Part shown: positions 1,618-24,772 of the stretch, one piece after another
How the letters are laid out: each line of letters starts with the position of its first letter
How positions within the stretch are numbered: position 1 is the first letter of the stretch
From: Patescibacteria group bacterium
Lineage (GTDB): Bacteria > Patescibacteriota > Patescibacteriia > UBA2591 > UBA6264
Assembly: GCA_028713575.1 (NCBI GenBank)
Contig: JAQTOB010000008.1
Location: forward strand, 1 to 30,658
Direction of reading: 5' to 3'
DNA length: 30,658 bases
The notes under the pieces: generated by a model
The model's input: the letters and a program-made list of their open reading frames with translations, nothing else
Databases searched by the model: none
What the model was told of the DNA's origin: nothing
Program-made: the position numbers and the translations under genes

Positions 1618-2274
1618 TTATTTTTTATAGGTGTATCTTTGGGGCACGGTTTGTTGCAGGACCAATTCCTTTTGTCCGGTTTTTTCAATCAATGATTTTA
1701 ATTTCAAAACAATGGTCGCGCGAGGGTGAGTGTAGGTGGTTGACCCGGCAAAAAAGGGGTCACTGGTCGGATTGATATAAAAATCAAGGCGTTCAATGCT
1801 AACATTGGTCATAGTAATGCTTTGATAATCTACTTCTTCGCAATCAGAATCTTTACATCGCTTAATAATACAGCGGTCAGAAGCGCAGGCCCTTTCGGTT
1901 AATGTCGTTTTATATCTAATTTCATTGCCGTCAAAATCTTTAAGACACAGCATATCAACTAATCCATTTTCAGGAACAGCCCCACAATCTTTGCTTTCGC
2001 CGTAATTATCATAATCAATCATACTCGCCCTAACATCTTTAACAATTAAAATCATCAGATATTGCCCGTCTTCTTGGACGTTAAGTTGACCAAGCCCCTT
2101 TTCCCGCGTGCCAATGACATTGATATAAATCCCCATGGCCGACATAACGGCAATAACCAAAATGCCCATAGAAACCATAAGTTCAATTAAAGTAAAGCCC
2201 GCACTTTTTAAAAATTGCCGATTATTTAAAATTATTGATGGTGCTTTTTCTAAATCACGCATAAATTTTGCCAA
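1618..2274 (-). CDS. Prepilin-type N-terminal cleavage/methylation domain protein (minor pilin / pseudopilin-like)
   Basis: Canonical SAG-FTLIELMVSMGILVIAV motif followed by a Cys-rich C-terminal domain. The true start may be an internal Met (MRDL...). Confidence 0.8.
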   Translation of the reverse strand: MAKFMRDLEKAPSIILNNRQFLKSAGFTLIELMVSMGILVIAVMSAMGIYINVIGTREKGLGQLNVQEDGQYLMILIVKDVRASMIDYDNYGESKDCGAVPENGLVDMLCLKDFDGNEIRYKTTLTERACASDRCIIKRCKDSDCEEVDYQSITMTNVSIERLDFYINPTSDPFFAGSTTYTHPRATIVLKLKSLIEKTGQKELVLQQTVPQRYTYKK

Positions 2275-2389
2275 AATATTTAAAATCTATTTTATAATGC
2301 GTAAACCTCTTTTAGTCTTCCGGGTTTCTGGGAAAATTCTTGCCAGGAGCCCCGACGAGCTCTGTTCTTGGCAATTCTTGGCAGGTCAT

Positions 2390-2494
2390 GACCTGCCAAG
2401 GCGAGACCTGCCAAGGCGAGACCTGACAAGGCGAGACCTGCCAAGGCGAGACCTGCCAAGGCGAGACCTGACAAGGCGAGACCTGACAAGGCGA
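2390..2494. repeat. Tandem 15-bp repeat, 7 units (GACCTGCCAAGGCGA / GACCTGACAAGGCGA)
   Basis: Direct reading gives units starting at 2390, 2405, 2420, 2435, 2450, 2465 and 2480. The array is intergenic between two pilin-like genes and shares the core GGCGAGACCT with family A. Confidence 0.9.
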
Positions 2495-2530
2495 CCCCGC
2501 AAGGAACTCTGCCGGGAATTGTTAGAGAAA

Positions 2531-3082
2531 TTATTCGTCATATCTGCTTCGCCAATCAGTCAAACGGCTTTCCAAAACTACGGTGTGAGTATTTTCCCTT
2601 TCTTGCCAAGAAACCGTGGAAACGATTTTCTTTTCGCAAGGAACAATGCAATTTCCTCCCAAATCTTCGCCATCGGAAATAGTAATTAGACGGCGAAAAA
2701 CCTGCACTGAAGCACAATGAGTATGCAGGTCATCGGATTGTTGACAAAGATGACAATTAAGGCAATTATCAATTATTTCTTCTTCTAAACCAAAATTGGC
2801 TTTAACATTCAAGGCTGTTGCGTTGTAATTAAGAACATAATGACCGTTAACATCTAAACCATATGGCCAAGATTGGTCGGGATTTAAACGATTGCTATTA
2901 ACAATGGCATAAACAATTTCAATGCCTTCACGAGCAAAATTGGTGGCCATAATTCTTTCTGTTGACTGTCCGCCTAAAACAACCTGAGTTAACCCCACGG
3001 TTAAAATAGCCACGATGGCCACAACAATAATACTAACCGCGACAATAGTTTCAATTAAAGACTGGGATTGATTATTAATCAT
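2531..3082 (-). CDS. Pilin-like protein with a degenerate prepilin leader
   Basis: MINNQS-QSLIETIVAVSIIVVAIVAILTVG has a short leader, Glu at +5 and a hydrophobic helix, but Gly-1/Phe+1 are not conserved. The C-terminal domain is Cys-rich and the gene sits in the pilin cluster. Confidence 0.65.
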   Translation of the reverse strand: MINNQSQSLIETIVAVSIIVVAIVAILTVGLTQVVLGGQSTERIMATNFAREGIEIVYAIVNSNRLNPDQSWPYGLDVNGHYVLNYNATALNVKANFGLEEEIIDNCLNCHLCQQSDDLHTHCASVQVFRRLITISDGEDLGGNCIVPCEKKIVSTVSWQERENTHTVVLESRLTDWRSRYDE

Positions 3083-3092
3083 TGATTATTAA

Positions 3093-3254
3093 TTAAAAAA
3101 ATTTTAGAAAAAACAGAGACTTAAAATTTTGTCCTATTATTAGGGGATTTGTTATTACATTTTTAGAAAGTCCTTTGAAAAATTCAATAATATCTTCGCC
3201 AAATTCAGCGGTCCTTTCTTCTCGGTCACATTTTGGTTTTTGGTCATTAGACAT
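3093..3254 (-). pseudogene. Possible truncated four-helix-bundle (23S rRNA IVS-type) protein fragment
   Basis: My own translation: MSNDQKPKCDREERTAEFGEDIIEFFKGLSKNVITNPLIIGQNFKSLFFLKFF*. The ERTxxFGxxIIxFxKxLxKN..TNPLIxQ pattern matches, from memory, the N-terminus of that family. Only 53 codons remain. Confidence 0.3.
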
Positions 3255-3300
3255 TTAAACTTTTATTAGAAATTAAAAATTAGGAATTAGAAATTTTCAT

Positions 3301-3879
3301 TTATTCTGTTTTACGGACATCAATTTCTCCTTGACTATTAACACGCACATAATTATAAAAATTAGCGTCAAGATGTTGAAGTAAAATTAAAACCCGGTCG
3401 GCTCCGGTTAAAGGGATTCCGCCTTCGCCACTGCTAATATAAATCGGGCCATAGGGCGGTTTAAAAATAATTGAAGTTTGCGAGGGGTCAACTATTCTGA
3501 CTTCTTCCGATAAAGTAATGGTTTGAATTTCCGTATCATCAATATCATATTCATAATCATTTGGCTGAGAAGTGTTGGCGAAAAGTTTATATGAATTGGG
3601 GACAGTAGAATTGTCAAAATAAACACCATAACCGCCTTCTGGGCGGGAAGAGTCTATTTGTTTCCCGCTTAGAGCCATCATTTGCGCCTGTTTAATAATG
3701 CCGGCCATTTTTTCTGACGCCGAATTCAAGTCCATGGATCGGCCGCCAGACCGCATATTAGCAAAAATCGCTCCGCCAACCAAAACAGTAATGGCAATTA
3801 CCACCATTAGTTCCACCAACGTGAAGCATTGGTTATTTGAGTGCTTAGATACTTTCAATTTAACAAAATAATTTAACAT
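3301..3879 (-). CDS. Prepilin-type protein (FimT/GspH-like by size and position, a weak assignment)
   Basis: NNQC-FTLVELMVVIAITVLVGG motif, with Cys where the usual Gly-1 is expected. It lies in the pilin cluster immediately downstream of pilD. Confidence 0.7.
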   Translation of the reverse strand: MLNYFVKLKVSKHSNNQCFTLVELMVVIAITVLVGGAIFANMRSGGRSMDLNSASEKMAGIIKQAQMMALSGKQIDSSRPEGGYGVYFDNSTVPNSYKLFANTSQPNDYEYDIDDTEIQTITLSEEVRIVDPSQTSIIFKPPYGPIYISSGEGGIPLTGADRVLILLQHLDANFYNYVRVNSQGEIDVRKTE

Positions 3880-4262
3880 TTTAATATTGGAACAATTAAG
3901 CTAAAATTAACCCGATTAACTTTTTTTAAAATCCCAAATTACAAATAACAAATCAGAGATGTGATGAGATGCGTCCCCATCAACGATAAAATTATTCTAA
4001 TTAACCTAATTATTCTAATAAATGCCCAATTTCCAAACCCCAATGTCTAAAAATTTTTGGTCATTCAGCTATTGATTATTGGGATTTTATTAGGTCAATT
4101 AGAAATTAGGTCAATTAGAATAATTAGAAATTTTAATTAAACGTTTAGAATTTAGGATTTTCCGCCAGAGGCGGATCAGCCTTTGGCTGAAGGATTTTGT
4201 AATTGTTTATGATTTGTTGTTTGAAATTTGTAATTTACGGTTATTTTTGTGTTCTAATGTTT

Positions 4263-5108
4263 TCATGTTCTAATGATTATATTAATTATTTCTTGGCCGA
4301 AGATGAAAACAAAAAAAGTTCCCAGGGCCAAAAACGGGCCTAAGGGAATTTCACTTTTAAGTCCTTTTTTCTTAAAAACGATTAAAAATAAACTGACTAA
4401 GGCGCCAATAAAATAAGAAATGACTAAAGCCAAACAAATCATTGACCAATGGCCGAGAGCCACGGCCATAAAAAATCCAATACGCAAATCACCCAAACCA
4501 ATTCCTTTCCCTTTGGTCAAGAGATATTGAACGGCAAAAAACCCGACGCCGATTAAAGTTGTCCAAAATATCTGAACAGAGCGAGCCCAAAAGCTCAAAT
4601 CAATCAAGTGATTTGCCAAAGGCTCGGCAAAAAGATTTAATAATAAAACCAATCCTGCGCCAGACAAAAGCACAGAATCTTCAATCATCATATATTTTAA
4701 ATCATAAACAAAAATAAAGGTTAAAATAAAATAAACCGACCAAGTGCGGAGAATTTTTAAAATATCTAAAACAAAACCTTTTTGTCCTAAAACCAAAAAA
4801 TTGACATCAGAACGAAAAAACCCGACTAAGGGTAAAACAAACAAGGTCCCCATTAATAATTCAATAAGAGGATATTGCCAAGAAATTTTTTGTTGACAAT
4901 GACGGCACTTACCTTTTAATAAAACAAAAGAAATCAAGGGAATGTTGTCGTACCAAGCAATTTGTTTTTTACAATGGGGGCAAAAAGAACGACCAGAAAG
5001 AGATTGTTTTTTGGCTAAACGATAAATCAAACAATTTAAAAAACTGCCAAAAGATAAACCGATGAAAAAAACGCAAACGTAAAAAACAACTATAAGCATA
5101 TAATTCAC
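4263..5108 (-). CDS. pilD: Prepilin leader peptidase / N-methyltransferase (A24 family)
   Basis: Zn-binding CPHC...CRHC pair with WYDNIPLISF, about 8 predicted TM segments, and Asp-containing motifs (YDLKYMMIEDS, GIGLGDLRIG). Confidence 0.9.
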   Translation of the reverse strand: MNYMLIVVFYVCVFFIGLSFGSFLNCLIYRLAKKQSLSGRSFCPHCKKQIAWYDNIPLISFVLLKGKCRHCQQKISWQYPLIELLMGTLFVLPLVGFFRSDVNFLVLGQKGFVLDILKILRTWSVYFILTFIFVYDLKYMMIEDSVLLSGAGLVLLLNLFAEPLANHLIDLSFWARSVQIFWTTLIGVGFFAVQYLLTKGKGIGLGDLRIGFFMAVALGHWSMICLALVISYFIGALVSLFLIVFKKKGLKSEIPLGPFLALGTFFVFIFGQEIINIIIRT

Positions 5109-8596: not shown

Positions 8597-8674
8597 GGGG
8601 TCTGACCCTATTTTTTTGGGTCGGGGTCTGGGGTCTGACCCTATTTTTTTGGGTCAGGGTCTGGGGTCTGACCC
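8597..8674. repeat. 3 x 33-bp tandem of the family B terminal hairpin (GGGGTCTGACCC + TATTTTTTTGGGTC...)
   Basis: Hairpins at 8598-8608, 8630-8641 and 8663-8674. Confidence 0.85.
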
Positions 8675-8745
8675 TATTTTTTAACCCTCTAAAATGCTTT
8701 ACTGATGCTGATTTTAGAGTGATTTTTCCAATTTGACGCGATTTT
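8663..8745 (-). repeat. Family B element (minus orientation) abutting the 3' end of the RAYT gene
   Basis: The reverse complement aligns with the plus-orientation copies: AAAATCGCGTCAAATTGGAAAAATCACTCTAAAAT...ATTTTAGAGGGTTAAAAAATAGGGTCAGACCCC. Confidence 0.8.
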
Positions 8746-8747
8746 AC

Positions 8748-9377
8748 TTAAATATATTTTTCGTTTTTTATAAATTTCGGTCTTTCTTCTTTTTTTGATT
8801 CTTCTTTTACAAATTCTAAATATTCTTGACGGAGTTTTTCAACACTTCCGTCTCCGCCTAATGATAAAAATTGTTCACCGTCTATCAAACTATCTTTAAA
8901 ATTCCCTTTAAAATAAAATTGATAACTGCTCCAGCGGTAATTCTCCGGATTTTTTGCTAAACCAGCGCGAACCGCATTGAGGTCAATATAGGCGCTAACC
9001 GTCCAAAAATAAGATTCAGTATCTATTAAAGAGGCATAAAATCTGTCTTGAAATAAATGGCCGGTCCGCTTATGTCTATAATTAAAATAACCCGCATAAC
9101 AACCATTGACATAATGCATAATCTTAGAAATGGGGACGTCTTTTGTTTCTATAAATAAATGGACGTGATTTGACAAAAAATTATAAGAATACAAATAAAA
9201 ATTGTACAATTTTTTTGCCTTTTTAATAATTGCCAGCAATTTTTTGTAATCGCGAGCTCCCCTAAAAATACGCTTCTGATTTATTCCCCGACAAACAATG
9301 TGGTATATTTTTTCAGGGGCAATAATTCTTTCTCTTAATTTTCTGGTCATTTTAAATAAAATTTTAAAATTAATCAA
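8748..9377 (-). CDS. REP-associated tyrosine transposase (RAYT, IS200-like Y1 transposase), apparently intact
   Basis: IYHIVCRGINQKRIF, HUH motif SNHVHLFIE, GHLFQDRFY, and a catalytic-Tyr region YIDLNAVRAGL. The first 9 codons of the ORF-track call lie inside a repeat copy, so the start is more likely the Met at 9350 (MTRKL...). Confidence 0.85.
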   Translation of the reverse strand: MINFKILFKMTRKLRERIIAPEKIYHIVCRGINQKRIFRGARDYKKLLAIIKKAKKLYNFYLYSYNFLSNHVHLFIETKDVPISKIMHYVNGCYAGYFNYRHKRTGHLFQDRFYASLIDTESYFWTVSAYIDLNAVRAGLAKNPENYRWSSYQFYFKGNFKDSLIDGEQFLSLGGDGSVEKLRQEYLEFVKEESKKEERPKFIKNEKYI

Positions 9378-9578
9378 AATCGTGCCAAATTGAAATTTTT
9401 GCTCTATAAGTCTTTATTGGTGCGTGTTTCAGAAGGGACGTTCATGGGGTCAGACCCCATCCTTCAAATGTTAAATAAAATTTTAAAATTAATCAAAATC
9501 GTGCCAAATTGAAATTTTTGCTCTATAAGTCTTTATTGGTGCGTGTTTCAGAAGGGACGTTCATGGGGTCAGACCCCA
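9352..9578 (+). repeat. Two tandem family B elements (period 119 bp)
   Basis: 9352-9459 and 9471-9578 are near identical, with terminal hairpins at 9446-9458 and 9565-9577. They are followed by three CCCCATTATATTT mini-repeats (9574-9619). Confidence 0.9.
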
Positions 9579-12530: not shown

Positions 12531-13022
12531 TTACCAAGTGGTGTCGTCGACCAGACCGGCCGGCGTGGCGGTGTGTTTACCGGCCGCCACATCACCGATT
12601 ACTCCGCCTAAACAATAGTGAATCTGATAAGTAAGATTTGGGGCACTAGTTGACAGCGTTACATATGTATAAACCGTGTTGGGACAATCACCGTCTGCTC
12701 TCGGTTGGGGATTTTCCGGCACCACGGCCATATAAGTTGTTCCTGAACAGGCATCAGTGGCAAAGCCGTCATCTGAGTCCAAGCACACTCCACCAATGGT
12801 ATTGTCTCCCGCCACTTTAATATCCGGATATTCGTTGTTATCCAAATAATACAATTCCAAAGCGGTTTGAATTTGTTTAATGTCCGCGACCCGGCGGGCG
12901 TCTCTAGCTCTGGCTCTGGCTTGATTAAGGGCGACCACGGCTAAAGCGGAGAGTAAACCCATAATCGCCACCACAACTAAAAGTTCAATTAAAGTAAAGC
13001 CTTTTTTCTTTTTTGTATTCAT
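12531..13022 (-). CDS. Type IV major pilin / GspG-like pseudopilin
   Basis: MNTKKKKG-FTLIELLVVVAIMGLLSALAVVALNQARARARDARRVADIKQIQTALELYY is a textbook class III signal peptide plus N-terminal helix. The C-terminal domain is noticeably more GC-rich than its surroundings. Confidence 0.9.
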   Translation of the reverse strand: MNTKKKKGFTLIELLVVVAIMGLLSALAVVALNQARARARDARRVADIKQIQTALELYYLDNNEYPDIKVAGDNTIGGVCLDSDDGFATDACSGTTYMAVVPENPQPRADGDCPNTVYTYVTLSTSAPNLTYQIHYCLGGVIGDVAAGKHTATPAGLVDDTTW

Positions 13023-16636: not shown

Positions 16637-16880
16637 CAGTAAATCCCAATCCTCGCAAAAATTGATCAAAATCACACCAAATTTGAATTTTCGTTCTGTA
16701 AGTCTTTATTGGTGCGGATTTCAGAAGGGGTGTTCATGGGGTCAGACCCCAGACTCCAAGACCAGTAAATCCCAATCCTCGCAAAAATTGATCAAAATCA
16801 CGCCAAATTTGAATTTTCGTTCTGTAAGTCTTTATTAGTGCGGATTTCAGAAGGGGTGTTCATGGGGTCAGACCCCAGAC
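16637..16880 (+). repeat. Two tandem family B elements (period about 125 bp)
   Basis: 16637-16754 and 16762-16880, each starting CAGTAAATCCCAATCCTCGCAAAAATTGATCAAAATCAC... Hairpins at 16738-16750 and 16864-16876. Confidence 0.9.
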
Positions 16881-21115: not shown

Positions 21116-21240
21116 AAAAATATAAAGTATAAATCTTAAAATGCCTGTTTAAAATGCTAAATTTCAAATGTCAAAAGATAAACAACAAATAACAAATTCC
21201 AAATAACAAACAAATTATCTGCTCCGCCAAAGGCTAAATA

Positions 21241-21427
21241 AAATCCTTCTACGAGGTCTCGCCTCGTAGGTCAAAATCCTTCTACGAGGTCTCGCCTCGT
21301 AGGTCAAAATCCTTCTACGAGGTCTCGCCTCGTAGGTCAAAATCCTTCTACGAGGTCTCGCCTCGTAGGTCAAAATCCTTCTACGAGGTCTCGCCTCGTA
21401 GGTTGAGGTCTCGTCTCGTACAACGCC
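21241..21427. repeat. 5 x 33-bp tandem array of family A palindromes plus a degenerate sixth unit
   Basis: CTACGAGGTCTCGCCTCGTAG at 21249, 21282, 21315, 21348 and 21381, each followed by the identical 12-nt GTCAAAATCCTT. The loop is in the opposite orientation to the copies at 445-570. Confidence 0.9.
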
Positions 21428-22520: not shown

Positions 22521-22549
22521 TCTAATTTAAAATGTTAGAATTTACAAAA

Positions 22550-22912
22550 GGGCGCATAGCATAGCTCCCCATAAAATTTTACTTCGTAAAATTAACGGGG
22601 CAAGCAGTGGCAGACCTGCCTACTCTGCCTACCGGCAGACAGGCGGCAGGCAGGGCGCCACTTTTATAGTGATAATTTACAATCTATTTTGTCTTTGGTG
22701 AGCGTAATTCGGGCGTGTAGCTCAACGGCAGACCTGCCTGACGGCAGGCAGGGCGCCACTCTTATAGTGATAATTTACAATCCATTTTGTCTTTGGTGAG
22801 CGTAATTCGGGCGTGTAGCTCAACGGCAGACCTGCCTGACGGCAGGCAGGGCGCCACTCTTATAGTGATAATTTACAATTTAATTATTCTTTCTGGTGGG
22901 TGTAGTTAAAAT
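22550..22912 (+). repeat. Three tandem units derived from a tRNA-Ile 5' half, each interrupted by a GC-rich palindrome
   Basis: Units start at 22550 (diverged, 161 bp), 22711 (98 bp) and 22809. Units 2 and 3 begin with GGGCGTGTAGCTCA, identical to tRNA-Ile positions 1-14. Then comes CGGCAGACCTGCCTGACGGCAGGCAGG, then GCGCCACTCTTATAGTG, which mimics the anticodon arm GCGCTACTCTTATAAAGTAG. Confidence 0.8.
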
Positions 22913-22987
22913 GGGCGTGTAGCTCAGTGGTAGAGCGCTACTCTTATAAAGTAGATGTCGAAGGTCCGATCCCTTCCACGCCCACCA
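22913..22987 (+). tRNA. tRNA-Ile, anticodon UAU
   Basis: Manual cloverleaf: acceptor GGGCGTG/CACGCCC, D arm GCTC-AGTGGTA-GAGC, anticodon arm CTACT-CTTATAA-AGTAG (anticodon TAT), variable loop ATGTC, T arm GAAGG-TCCGATC-CCTTC, A73, and an encoded CCA. Confidence 0.8.
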
Positions 22988-23224
22988 GAAAGAATACTGA
23001 AAAGGTTAATTATCAATATATCGGCAACTACATATAAAAATAATGGGGAGTCGCCGCTATAAGCGGAAGGTTCGGGGGTTCTCAGCCACATTATTTATTT
23101 TTTGAGGTATGGCTGATCCACCGCTGGTGGAAAATCCCTCTGCTGCCGATATTAAAAACATTAAAACACTGGAATATTGGAATATTTTATTTTAAGGACA
23201 AATTGACATAATTATAGAATTTTT

Positions 23225-23878: not shown

Positions 23879-23974
23879 ATGTTTTAATAAAATGATGTTT
23901 GGTTTTGAGGCTTAATTATTACATTTGTATTTCAAGGCTGTTTATGATATAATAGTTAAAGACAATAACAATCG

Positions 23975-24201
23975 GGGCCGATAACTCAGTTGGTAAAGCG
24001 CCACATTTGTCCTGATTTTGTTAAAATTCAAAAAATTGAGGATTTTCTATAAATTCAGACGGGCCTATAGTTTAGTGGCAGAACGCTACATTTGCAATGT
24101 AGGAACGGCAGTTCGATTCTGCCTAGGTCCATAATTATATTTCCGCCCGAATTTATCAGAACAATGTGGAGGACTGGGTTCAAGTCCCCATCGGTCCGCC
24201 A
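23975..24201 (+). pseudogene. Interrupted tRNA-Ala(UGC)-like gene (outer copy), split in the anticodon loop by a 152-nt insertion
   Basis: 5' half 23975-24009: GGGCCGA TA ACTC AGTTGGTA AAGC G CCACA TTTG. 3' half 24162-24201: CAA TGTGG AGGA CTGGG TTCAAGT CCCCA TCGGTCC G CCA. It has a G3:T70 pair. The D stem (2 of 4 pairs) and T stem (3 of 5 pairs) are weakened. Confidence 0.55.
24061..24131 (+). tRNA. tRNA-Ala, anticodon UGC (inner copy)
   Basis: Manual cloverleaf: acceptor GGGCCTA/TAGGTCC with G3:T70, D arm GTTT-AGTGGCA-GAAC, anticodon arm CTACA-TTTGCAA-TGTAG, T arm GGCAG-TTCGATT-CTGCC, A73, and no encoded CCA. Confidence 0.85.
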
Positions 24202-24229
24202 GATTGAATTGGCCAATAAAATTTGAAAC

Positions 24230-24259
24230 AAAAAAAAGAGCTAAGCGGCTCTTTTTTTT
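24230..24259. terminator. Bidirectional intrinsic terminator (tRNA locus / convergent acidic-protein gene)
   Basis: AAAAAAAAGAGC-TAAGCG-GCTCTTTTTTTT. Confidence 0.75.
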
Positions 24260-24271
24260 GTTATATGAAAA

Positions 24272-24772
24272 CTATTTTTTCTCTTCTGGATGTTTCTTTA
24301 ACCATTCAATCGCTTCTTTTTGACGTTGTTTTCTTTCTTCTTCTTTATGTTTCTTAATTAAGTTTTCTTTCTCTTCAGGGGAAATCTTTTTAAAATTCTT
24401 TACTGTTTTTACTTCGCCGCTCCCCGATTCCCAAATCTGGTCCGGTTCAGTGCTGTGGAATTTACCTTCTGAATCCTTCCAGCCCCGCGGCTGACGGGTT
24501 ATCTGACTAAAAGTTTCCGGTTCTTTTTCTAAATCTTGAAAAATTTCGTCTAAATGTTCAGCCGGATCGCCGTCGTCGCTGGGAACCTGCTCCGGGTCTG
24601 ATAAATCTTTCTCGCCAGAATCTTCTGTTTCTCTTTCGCGATTATAATTATCTTGTTCCAAAGGAGATTCTTTTCTTGAATCATTTTTTCTTTCTTCTGG
24701 CACATCATCAATAGTTTTTTCCGCGTCAAAATCATCATTATCGTAATTTTTGTATTCTTTGTTAAAAAGCAT
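24272..24772 (-). CDS. Hypothetical highly charged (Asp/Glu/Lys-rich) protein
   Basis: ORF track. The sequence is low-complexity and acidic with no TM segment and no recognised motif. It could be intrinsically disordered. Confidence 0.45.
   Translation of the reverse strand: MLFNKEYKNYDNDDFDAEKTIDDVPEERKNDSRKESPLEQDNYNRERETEDSGEKDLSDPEQVPSDDGDPAEHLDEIFQDLEKEPETFSQITRQPRGWKDSEGKFHSTEPDQIWESGSGEVKTVKNFKKISPEEKENLIKKHKEEERKQRQKEAIEWLKKHPEEKK

Follow-up and report, generated by a model that had tools for sequence, protein, structure and literature searches.

Here we describe an alanine tRNA locus in a 30,658-nucleotide (nt) stretch of Patescibacteria DNA (NCBI GenBank assembly GCA_028713575.1, contig JAQTOB010000008.1; "the window" hereafter means this whole stretch), in which an outer tRNA-Ala(UGC) gene is interrupted between anticodon nucleotides 35|36 (TTTG|CAA) by 152 nt, 24010-24161, that contain a second, complete tRNA-Ala gene. 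A preliminary description made from the window alone had reported this nesting, and on direct re-reading its coordinates and sequences for the nested locus all proved right. The locus consists of the following features:

23945-23953, plus strand: extended -10 promoter element TGATATAAT of the tRNA-Ala locus, from direct reading and conservation
23975-24009, plus strand: 5' half of the outer tRNA-Ala(UGC), a pseudogene; positions 1-35, ending in the anticodon-loop TTTG; profile match
24010-24042, plus strand: remnant of module A, a 33-nt hairpin TCCTGATTTTGTTAAAATTCAAAAAATTGAGGA formed by both inverted-repeat ends of a GIY-YIG module from which the open reading frame (ORF) is deleted
24043-24060, plus strand: left arm and leader of module B, TTTTCTATAAATTCAGAC, including the inner bracket arm ATAAATTC
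24061-24131, plus strand: inner (cargo) tRNA-Ala(UGC), intact, with G3:U70 and A73 and no encoded CCA
24132-24161, plus strand: trailer and right inverted-repeat end of module B, TAATTATATTTCCGCCCGAATTTATCAGAA
24162-24201, plus strand: 3' half of the outer tRNA-Ala pseudogene; positions 36-76, comprising CAA, anticodon stem, T arm, acceptor strand, G73 and CCA
24230-24259, either strand: bidirectional intrinsic terminator (A-tract, GC hairpin, T-tract) closing the tRNA-Ala locus and the convergent ORF 24272-24772

The two flanks are halves of a single tRNA-Ala(UGC) gene, as had been proposed. A tRNA-Ala profile hidden Markov model (HMM) built without the outer sequence matched 23975-24009 at profile positions 1-35 (E 1.1e-4) and 24162-24200 at positions 36-75 (E 2.4e-3), so that the two matches are exactly contiguous. 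The outer gene in its native form was called neither by ARAGORN with introns allowed nor by Rfam at E<=5. When 24010-24161 was deleted, and the spliced sequence assessed with ARAGORN and the profile HMM, ARAGORN called a 75-nt tRNA-Ala(tgc) at its default threshold; its D stem has 2 bp and its T stem 3 bp. When 4,189 alternative boundaries for the deletion were tried, a tRNA call came from 13 only, all on one diagonal, and alanine was called only for 24009|24162. The spliced sequence is identical to the intact tRNA-Ala of locus L088 at 62/73 positions and to the inner tRNA at 48/73, and is therefore a distinct tRNA-Ala allele rather than a copy of the inner gene.

Removal of the insertion restores TTTGCAA exactly, without a target-site duplication. 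The ends of the insertion pair with each other, lengthening the outer anticodon stem to a ~15-bp helix that juxtaposes both junctions. Both stems pointed out in the preliminary description, the extended outer anticodon stem and the bracket around the inner tRNA, do exist; they represent the inverted repeats at the ends of the inserted modules together with the palindromic target TTG^CAA. By sequence reading and in the minimum free energy (MFE) fold of the transcript, the bracket arm ATAAATTC in the module B leader pairs with 24149-24156; in the same fold 24010-24042 forms a hairpin and the terminator at 24230-24259 is the last, 16-bp hairpin. A 451-nt region is 100% identical in a Joint Genome Institute (JGI) metagenome contig and an NCBI metagenome-assembled genome (MAG), and the nested region is spanned by two Logan assemblies from other Sequence Read Archive (SRA) runs, which represent strain variants. 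Because three independent assemblies share the junctions, and strain variants carry the structure as well, the nested structure is not an assembly chimera, a concern that had been raised at the outset.

The inner gene at 24061-24131 is as canonical as first thought: ARAGORN calls it tRNA-Ala(tgc), Rfam RF00005 scores it at 67.6 bits against a gathering score of 29, and the alanine identity elements G3:T70 and A73 are present. It shows 0/71 differences from its counterpart in the sister strain L087, is 97% identical to the plain tRNA-Ala of the relatives L001 and L005, and is presumably the working gene. Promoter and terminator assignments rest on direct reading, conservation and folding; a simple promoter/terminator scan flagged neither TGATATAAT nor the terminator, the former because it lacks a good -35. 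The motif TATGATATAAT also stands upstream of the outermost of the tRNA-Ala layers in L088 and of the intact tRNA-Ala of L090, and L001 has TATGATACAAT. The composite is probably transcribed as a whole from TGATATAAT, with the outer halves likely to be co-transcribed with the inner tRNA. A -10-like TATAAAT lies at 24048-24054, 6-7 nt upstream of the start of the inner tRNA; a role for it as a promoter is speculative.

The origin of the insertion can be read from locus L094, in which an outer-type tRNA-Ala is split by TCCCGAAATT…an 84-aa GIY-YIG ORF…TTTCGAGGA|TCCTCGATAAATTCTGGT, an inner-type tRNA-Ala and TATATTTCC…AATTTATCGGGA, giving the scheme TCCCGA…ORF…GGA|TCC…tRNA-Ala…TCGGGA. Once the L094 ORF is removed, window positions 23975-24201 align with this locus end to end; the parts follow one another in the same order, and both genes are split at TTTG|CAA. 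Identities are 30/35 in the outer 5' half, 21/33 in the hairpin that remains of module A, 12/18 in the leader (L094 TCCTCGATAAATTCTGGT), 62/71 in the cargo tRNA, 19/30 in the trailer (L094 TATATTTCCATTAAAATTTATCGGGA) and 35/40 in the outer 3' half. The module A remnant aligns with both ends of the L094 module that contains the ORF, TCCCGAAATTAAATT…AATTTAATTTCGAGGA; module B, the tRNA bracketed by inverted repeats, occupies 24043-24161 in the window, and the terminal ATCAGAA of its trailer corresponds to the family terminus ATCGGGA. Since L094 minus its ORF aligns through every part, the 152 nt of the window represent an ORF-deleted two-module cassette. One of the two readings first offered, a tiny insertion carrying its own replacement tRNA, is thereby supported and sharpened into an ORF-less modular cassette that occupies the same 35|36 site elsewhere. 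Its description of the interrupted gene as a paralogue needs correction: that gene is probably the resident tRNA-Ala, because it sits behind the conserved promoter and before the terminator, and relatives have a single tRNA-Ala there.

The insertion lacks the defining features of known introns and of integrase-mediated islands. A search for Intron_gpI at E<=5 in the window, L006, L087 and L088 gave no match, nor did any group I/II or other Rfam family; the base at -1 is G rather than U, and the last base of the insertion is A rather than G. The junctions 24009|24010 and 24161|24162 face each other in a continuous helix, in place of a bulge-helix-bulge, and the host is bacterial. These results uphold the earlier statement that the insertion is neither a group I intron nor bounded by a bulge-helix-bulge motif. 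There is no integrase in or adjoining the 152 nt, and the flanks are complementary halves of one gene and not direct repeats. The nested region had no match in a phage database search, and metagenome contigs scanned with the exact outer-type 5'-half pattern yielded none either.

Complete elements, reached via homologues of the L006 ORF, reveal that the window cassette belongs to a family. The same anatomy is found in L093, L095/L096, L100 and probably L006, plus at least eight metagenome loci among the matches listed, at least 12 further loci in all, with the order outer 5' half, TCCCGAT…, ORF (81-93 aa where intact), ATCGAGGA|TCCTCGAT, same-isotype cargo tRNA, ATCGGGA, outer 3' half. The interrupted genes are tRNA-Ala(UGC), tRNA-Ala(CGC) and tRNA-Thr(UGU), always at 35|36 among the loci examined, and the isotype of the cargo equals that of the interrupted gene in every anticodon-loop insertion examined. 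In complete cassettes module A (nuclease) and module B (tRNA) meet at a palindromic …GGA|TCC… junction. Besides the termini TCCCGA…TCGGGA the modules have specific inverted repeats of 12-17 bp, and copies without ORF and without cargo exist. The family thus shares inverted repeats and deletion derivatives with miniature inverted-repeat transposable elements (MITEs) and insertion sequences, but it does not duplicate its target site and encodes no recognised transposase. "Empty" elements with the same termini lie in the D loops of dead copies (L093, L161, L173, L191), those of L093 being identical 95-nt copies in two different tRNA D loops. Scans of viral contigs for the junction patterns matched at 14 loci, all by chance and without tRNA context.

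The only protein that the element encodes belongs to the GIY-YIG superfamily (Pfam PF01541, E 1e-10 to 1e-15). The cassette nucleases are 80-93 aa long and amount to a bare catalytic domain, with Y3, Y5, Y16, G18, R26, H30 and E62 invariant and N31 nearly so in their alignment. Among solved structures those nearest to them are of UPF0213 proteins, the I-TevI catalytic domain and SLX1, and the NCBIfam model grpIintron_endo matches nuclease residues 4-39 only, far below its cut-off. Related GIY-YIG ORFs accompany tRNA-Glu, tRNA-Leu, tRNA-Cys and tRNA-Ile. The ORF forms a decay series: most loci have it intact, L006 has a frameshifted version, L205 retains 11 aa of it, and L093 and the window have lost it. 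Such a series would be expected of a homing-type gene.

GIY-YIG cassettes at tRNA-Glu, tRNA-Leu and tRNA-Cys were observed in L019 (3795-3893, minus strand), L068 (1290-1700, minus strand), L040 and L059. Their dead outer copies carry GC-rich hairpins of 15-40 nt with TCC…GGA or CCC…GGG ends, placed in the D loop, at position 26 and in the anticodon loop (35|36 or 34|35). The cassettes of L040 and L059 are flanked by a direct repeat of the anticodon loop that holds the hairpin.

Comparison of the loci points to movement between genomes. The nuclease P0008 (84 aa) is identical in L094 and L095, with ~3-4 synonymous DNA differences counted by eye; syntenic host DNA of the two loci is 80.7% identical, and they have different tRNA-Ala alleles as interrupted gene and as cargo. 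Alleles also exchange roles: the outer type of the window is the intact cargo in L088, and its inner type is the interrupted gene in L205 and L006. The tRNA-Ala locus holds the inner-type gene alone in L001 and L005, and a third allele behind the same TATGATATAAT promoter in L089-L092. In L088 an intact outer-type gene, enclosed by a perfect inverted repeat of 12 bp, lies within the D loop of a third-type gene that has decayed. In L006 a frameshifted GIY-YIG ORF breaks the 5' half of an inner-type gene in its anticodon loop, and further tRNA-Ala layers come after it. The pattern of occupancy is thus that of a homing endonuclease, with a fixed 35|36 site, the same alleles intact and interrupted across genomes, and an identical nuclease in hosts ~81% identical. 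The 3' strand of the outer anticodon stem in L195 and L095 agrees with the cargo type instead of with its own 5' partner. Such mosaic outer halves, together with the clustered divergence described below, are what would be expected of co-conversion and lend support to homing. In L090, of a sister lineage (2100-2516; also in L091, and as two ORFs in L089) a 138-aa ORF of no Pfam family lies between a tRNA-Ala 3' remnant and the terminator, a position at which the window has nothing; it may be another passenger of turnover at tRNA loci.

The outer gene changes far faster than the DNA around it. Over 5.8 kb the window is 99.1% identical to L087, yet the outer halves differ at 3/35 (5') and 5/41 (3') positions, as against 1/81 in the two insertion flanks, 1/152 in the whole insertion and ~0% in several kb of flank; the outer gene has thus diverged by 9-12% between strains otherwise ~99-100% identical. 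In L087 its anticodon has gone from UGC to UGG through C24162G, at the third anticodon base, and in its T loop the conserved C56 is changed (TTC to TTT). The suspicion that one G had been lost from the window's outer T stem is confirmed by an indel relative to L087, the G being present in L087, L088 and L094. The D stem is indeed weakened in the window, by mismatches A10:C25 and C13:A22; the sister strains L082 and L087 retain G10, the L082 change restoring G10:C25. Pairs kept in the outer gene number 2/4 in the D stem and 3/5 in the T stem, and position 73 is G. Between L082 and the window 8 differences were found in 4.2 kb, all inside 23894-24023, the 130 bp adjoining the insertion. Relative to L087 the window diverges by 4-12% across 24158-24772, a tract that takes in the outer 3' half, the spacer downstream of it and ORF 24272-24772, and by ~0% beyond. 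Such tracts abutting the insertion suggest recombination or co-conversion at the locus.

The changes in the outer gene are non-compensating and strain-specific. Although recognisably derived from a tRNA, it is neither continuous nor interrupted by a known type of intron, its arms are damaged and its identity bases are changing, contrary to what a functional tRNA gene would show. It is a decaying pseudogene that is accumulating damage, and the pattern of its divergence argues against a conserved function of the outer RNA.

We consider it likely, and hold with good confidence, that the window locus is the fossil of a site-specific mobile cassette, an explanation that takes in transcription and homing steps reconstructed by us. 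Comparison of sequences establishes a DNA-level insertion at a fixed site, as opposed to an RNA device, along with modular structure, horizontal spread and decay of the interrupted gene. An element of the TCCCGA…TCGGGA type inserted at 35|36 of the tRNA-Ala(UGC) gene of this locus, splitting it, and in the window its module A has lost the ORF. The composite would be transcribed from the old promoter at 23945-23953 to the old terminator at 24230-24259, and RNase P, 3' trimming and CCA addition would release the cargo tRNA, which would now do the decoding, leaving the outer halves as by-products. When present, the nuclease would cut intact tRNA genes in the anticodon-loop DNA, and repair would copy in the cassette with the tRNA halves serving as homology arms. 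A whole replacement tRNA would thus stand in for the self-splicing by which introns and inteins make their insertion harmless, and each new invasion would strike the currently intact, innermost copy, giving rise to layered "onion" loci and a rapid turnover of tRNA alleles. That the spread itself is by nuclease-driven homing we regard as slightly more likely than not.

Several observations weigh against this account. Classical homing does not need terminal inverted repeats, and it leaves unexplained the empty D-loop elements with the same termini, which look transposon- or MITE-like. No DNA-binding domain or linker, such as those of I-TevI and the Seg proteins, is recognisable in the cassette nucleases. 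The cargo is not obviously immune, the 5' half of the L094 cargo being almost the same as that of the gene that the same nuclease interrupts in L095. The 30-kb window contains no GIY-YIG gene, and therefore any current activity would come from elsewhere in the genome or be extinct. An uninterrupted outer homologue, which the preliminary description had proposed to look for, exists in L088, but none was found at the syntenic position in the closest relatives. Finally, the transcription, processing and cleavage steps are ones that we infer from the DNA. An arms race driven by "resistant" cargo alleles, which we also entertained, is unsupported, because alleles swap roles and one nuclease coexists with a cargo resembling its target elsewhere.

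The main rival for the mobility step is transposition by a Y1/HUH transposase of the IS200/RAYT type (RAYT: REP-associated tyrosine transposase; REP: repetitive extragenic palindromic) acting in trans. Hairpin-ended, MITE- or REP-like transposons would be moved into single-stranded tRNA loops with the ORF and the tRNA as passengers, and only insertions that replace the tRNA would survive selection. We judge this unlikely overall, although it would account well for the absence of a target-site duplication, the hairpin-forming ends, the same-termini copies lacking ORF or cargo (including the 95-nt pair in L093) and the choice of tRNA loops (D, anticodon and T) as insertion sites, and the window does contain a RAYT-like Y1 transposase gene amid dispersed palindromic repeats. 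That gene, however, is flanked by another hairpin family (TGGGGTCAGACCCCA) and not by TCCCGA…TCGGGA, and no Y1 gene was seen adjoining the cassettes in L093-L100. The occurrence of a near-identical ORF in diverged hosts points to the module with the ORF as the unit that spreads, and strict insertion at 35|36 of a cognate tRNA with same-isotype cargo fits homing better.

An intron-like intervening sequence, in which the terminal helix is excised from the RNA and the outer halves are religated (e.g., by an RtcB-type ligase) so that both tRNAs function, is very improbable. The juxtaposition of the junctions by the ~15-bp helix would suit it, as would the still pristine outer halves of young copies such as L094 and the many non-intron insertions in rRNA genes of the candidate phyla radiation (CPR) that are absent from mature rRNA (PMC11270868). 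Every case examined nevertheless has a same-isotype replacement tRNA, which would be needless if splicing restored the host gene, and older outer copies decay, including anticodon and conserved T-loop bases. The insertion also has no group I/II intron or other Rfam match and no bulge-helix-bulge geometry, and neither RtcB nor a splicing endonuclease is encoded within the 30-kb window.

We give hardly any credence to the second reading in the preliminary description, a tRNA-in-tRNA precursor that serves a purpose: once the inner tRNA is released, the outer one would persist as a functional split tRNA with paired halves, or as regulatory halves. The outer acceptor stem and extended anticodon helix could keep the halves together in the MFE fold, and the positions of promoter and terminator imply co-transcription; but the outer sequence, 9-12% diverged and having lost its UGC identity and C56 in L087, evolves far faster than its surroundings without compensation, a tRNA broken inside its anticodon cannot decode, and homologous loci show an origin by insertion of a mobile cassette. 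The last alternative, no mobile element at all but two independent partial tandem duplications, illegitimate recombination or an assembly artefact, has a next to negligible probability: some loci with tandem 5' fragments only (the window tRNA-Ile, with a 98-nt period) are most simply explained by slippage or unequal exchange, and partial duplications would also place 5' fragments upstream and 3' fragments downstream, but the outer halves are perfectly contiguous (35|36) and too unlike the inner gene (48/73) to be copies of it, the junction sequence and termini recur in unrelated contexts, and independent assemblies and strain variants carry the structure.

For a broader form of the cassette explanation we incline, with modest confidence, towards acceptance. 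The Patescibacteria may harbour an undescribed class of selfish element, an invader of tRNA genes at 35|36 that does not splice itself out but brings a full replacement tRNA and a minimal single-domain GIY-YIG nuclease, building nested "Russian-doll" loci with fast horizontal turnover of alleles in genomes that hold a single copy of each tRNA otherwise; the empty hairpin modules, and possibly the CPR rRNA insertions, would be part of the same system.

In the window and 88 loci, ~22/99 tRNAs called by ARAGORN have fragments of their own sequence nearby, and 36/38 fragment matches place 5' parts upstream and 3' parts downstream; several other tRNA loci are clear nested insertions bounded by inverted repeats of 11-21 bp. 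Two simpler generalisations did not hold. Inverted repeats between leader and trailer are no general feature of pre-tRNAs, only 8/90 tRNAs having >=11 bp, mostly cassette-borne. A specific association with tRNAs of the GC-rich hairpins found in dead tRNA fragments is weakened: they are modestly enriched near tRNAs (1.45 vs 0.81 per kb), a figure that GC-rich loci from outside the CPR confound, and they are also numerous in ordinary intergenic parts of the window. Short-read contigs end inside nested loci in L084, L085 and L086 (at window 24105 and 24024) and in L006 (inside a tRNA-Ala). Because assemblies break in nested loci and standard tRNA finders report only the innermost gene there, such structures are likely to be under-reported in MAGs.

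The window itself is a low-GC (~35%) chromosomal fragment encoding RuvB, FtsW/RodA, an S41 protease, L27, Der, Pth, glycosyltransferases and type IV pilins, and its RuvB has its closest relatives in Patescibacteria MAGs. The tRNA-Ile(UAU) gene at 22913-22987 is preceded by 2.4 tandem 98-nt units and an older decayed unit near 22546 (region 22546-22995), each unit comprising the leader, tRNA-Ile nt 1-14, a GC hairpin CCTGCCTGACGGCAGG in place of the D loop and nt ~24-42. The layering process appears to be the same, though it involves 5' fragments alone and lacks an ORF. The leader of the intact gene includes TATTCTTTCTGGTGGG (22887-22902), whose 16 nt are perfectly complementary to the end of the acceptor strand together with A73, CCA and trailer, CCCACCAGAAAGAATA (22980-22995), and the tRNA-Ala(GGC) of L034 and L039 has the same pairing of leader and 3' end over 21 bp. 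The leader complement could be a cassette inverted repeat or a precursor-processing helix.

The Y1 gene of the window (8748-9377, minus strand) encodes a 209-aa IS200-like transposase whose nearest model is that of REP-associated tyrosine transposases (61.5 bits, cut-off 80). Hairpins of the TGGGGTCAGACCCCA family flank it at 8629-8676, 9445-9459 and 9564-9578 and occur also at 16737, 16863, 28339, 29553, 29682 and 29823, closing repeat units of ~120-140 nt that are dispersed and in tandem across the window; with both strands and up to one mismatch (<=1) there are 20 matches at ~12 distinct sites, with 0 expected by chance. Gene and repeats together resemble a REP/RAYT-type system, here in a CPR genome. 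Five perfect 33-nt tandem units with a 21-nt palindrome CTACGAGGTCTCGCCTCGTAG (21240-21403) separate the S41 protease gene from ruvB; they are not CRISPR-like because their 12-nt spacers are identical; the palindrome recurs on the other strand at 167-570 (region 147-588) and in L006. Seven copies of a 15-nt repeat GACCTGCCAAGGCGA (2390-2494) adjoin a 10-bp palindrome CTTGGCAGGTCATGACCTGCCAAG (2377-2400), in a stretch where ORFs without a Pfam match overlap. Several pilin-like genes with N-terminal methylation motifs are found at 1618-5108 and 12531-13022, with a prepilin peptidase at 4263-5108; such type IV pilus or competence-type machinery could supply the DNA uptake for an exchange of tRNA cassettes.

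Selfish insertions in essential genes stay silent as self-splicing introns or inteins, or by means of integrases that rebuild the 3' end of a tRNA gene. Carrying a full spare copy of the destroyed gene is a different solution, one we did not find described in our literature search. If the cassette explanation is true, it would explain the ~30%-different tRNA-Ala alleles at the same locus in closely related ultra-small bacteria and the tRNA fragments that litter otherwise streamlined genomes, and it may account for the enigmatic short insertions in CPR rRNA genes. The cassette further provides a minimal nuclease, ~85 aa long, whose target within tRNA genes is apparently precise. As a practical warning, nested tRNA loci are missed by standard tRNA finders and are often broken in assemblies.

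In a full-text literature search we came upon no account of nested tRNA genes in bacteria, nor of bacterial GIY-YIG cassettes that carry a tRNA. Islands and prophages borne by integrases target tRNA genes, some of them in the region of the anticodon loop, and restore their function, leaving displaced tRNA fragments as scars. They carry only the displaced 3' portion and use a tyrosine or serine integrase across an identical core; the cassette, in contrast, has no integrase, brings a complete and independent tRNA gene and leaves both old halves in place. REP/RAYT systems, MITEs and Rickettsia palindromic elements are small hairpin-ended repeats with non-autonomous copies that insert into RNA and protein genes, Y1-type systems making no or minimal target duplication, and the window itself has a RAYT-like gene and REP-like repeats. 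To our knowledge none of these elements has a tRNA cargo, a fixed tRNA target or a GIY-YIG nuclease.

Group I introns interrupt bacterial tRNA genes in the anticodon loop; they often contain ORFs for homing endonucleases and are frequent in uncultured phyla (doi 10.1101/2020.01.27.920355). Unlike them, the insertion described here has no ribozyme core and no U(-1)/omega-G, is too short at 152 nt, and has its host tRNA replaced rather than spliced. Disrupted tRNA genes of archaea include interruptions of D, anticodon and T loops as well as split and permuted tRNAs, with EndA splicing at bulge-helix-bulge motifs (PMC4033280, PMC3978253). The loops interrupted and the exon-joining helix formed by the ends of the intervening sequence are similar, but the archaeal case yields functional tRNAs, whereas here the host is a bacterium, there is no bulge-helix-bulge and the interrupted genes decay.

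Closer to home, rRNA genes of CPR/Patescibacteria contain non-intron insertions at stem-loops, many of them <200 bp and ORF-less, some with GIY-YIG ORFs (PMC11270868). These share with the cassette the bacterial group, the structural-RNA targets and the lack of likeness to group I/II introns; they differ in having been described from rRNA alone (the word "tRNA" is absent from PMC11270868), with no conserved termini or tRNA cargo reported, and they carry no replacement gene because rRNA tolerates excision without religation. SegB of phage T4 is a free-standing GIY-YIG homing endonuclease in the tRNA gene cluster of T-even phages; it cuts the tRNA-gene region of an endonuclease-less allele and is copied in with flanking tRNA genes, markers being co-converted, and its activity can amplify tRNA loci (PMC2330249; PMC13096335). 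Here too a GIY-YIG nuclease gene lies beside tRNA genes, but SegB is phage-borne and not on a bacterial chromosome, sits between genes without splitting a tRNA, has a DNA-binding region, and comes without terminal inverted repeats or a dedicated replacement copy of a disrupted gene. Among these nearest analogues we found none that combines a fixed target inside the anticodon with a complete replacement tRNA, and we rate the element as a target-restoring selfish insertion of the homing-endonuclease type, of which the window holds an eroded member.

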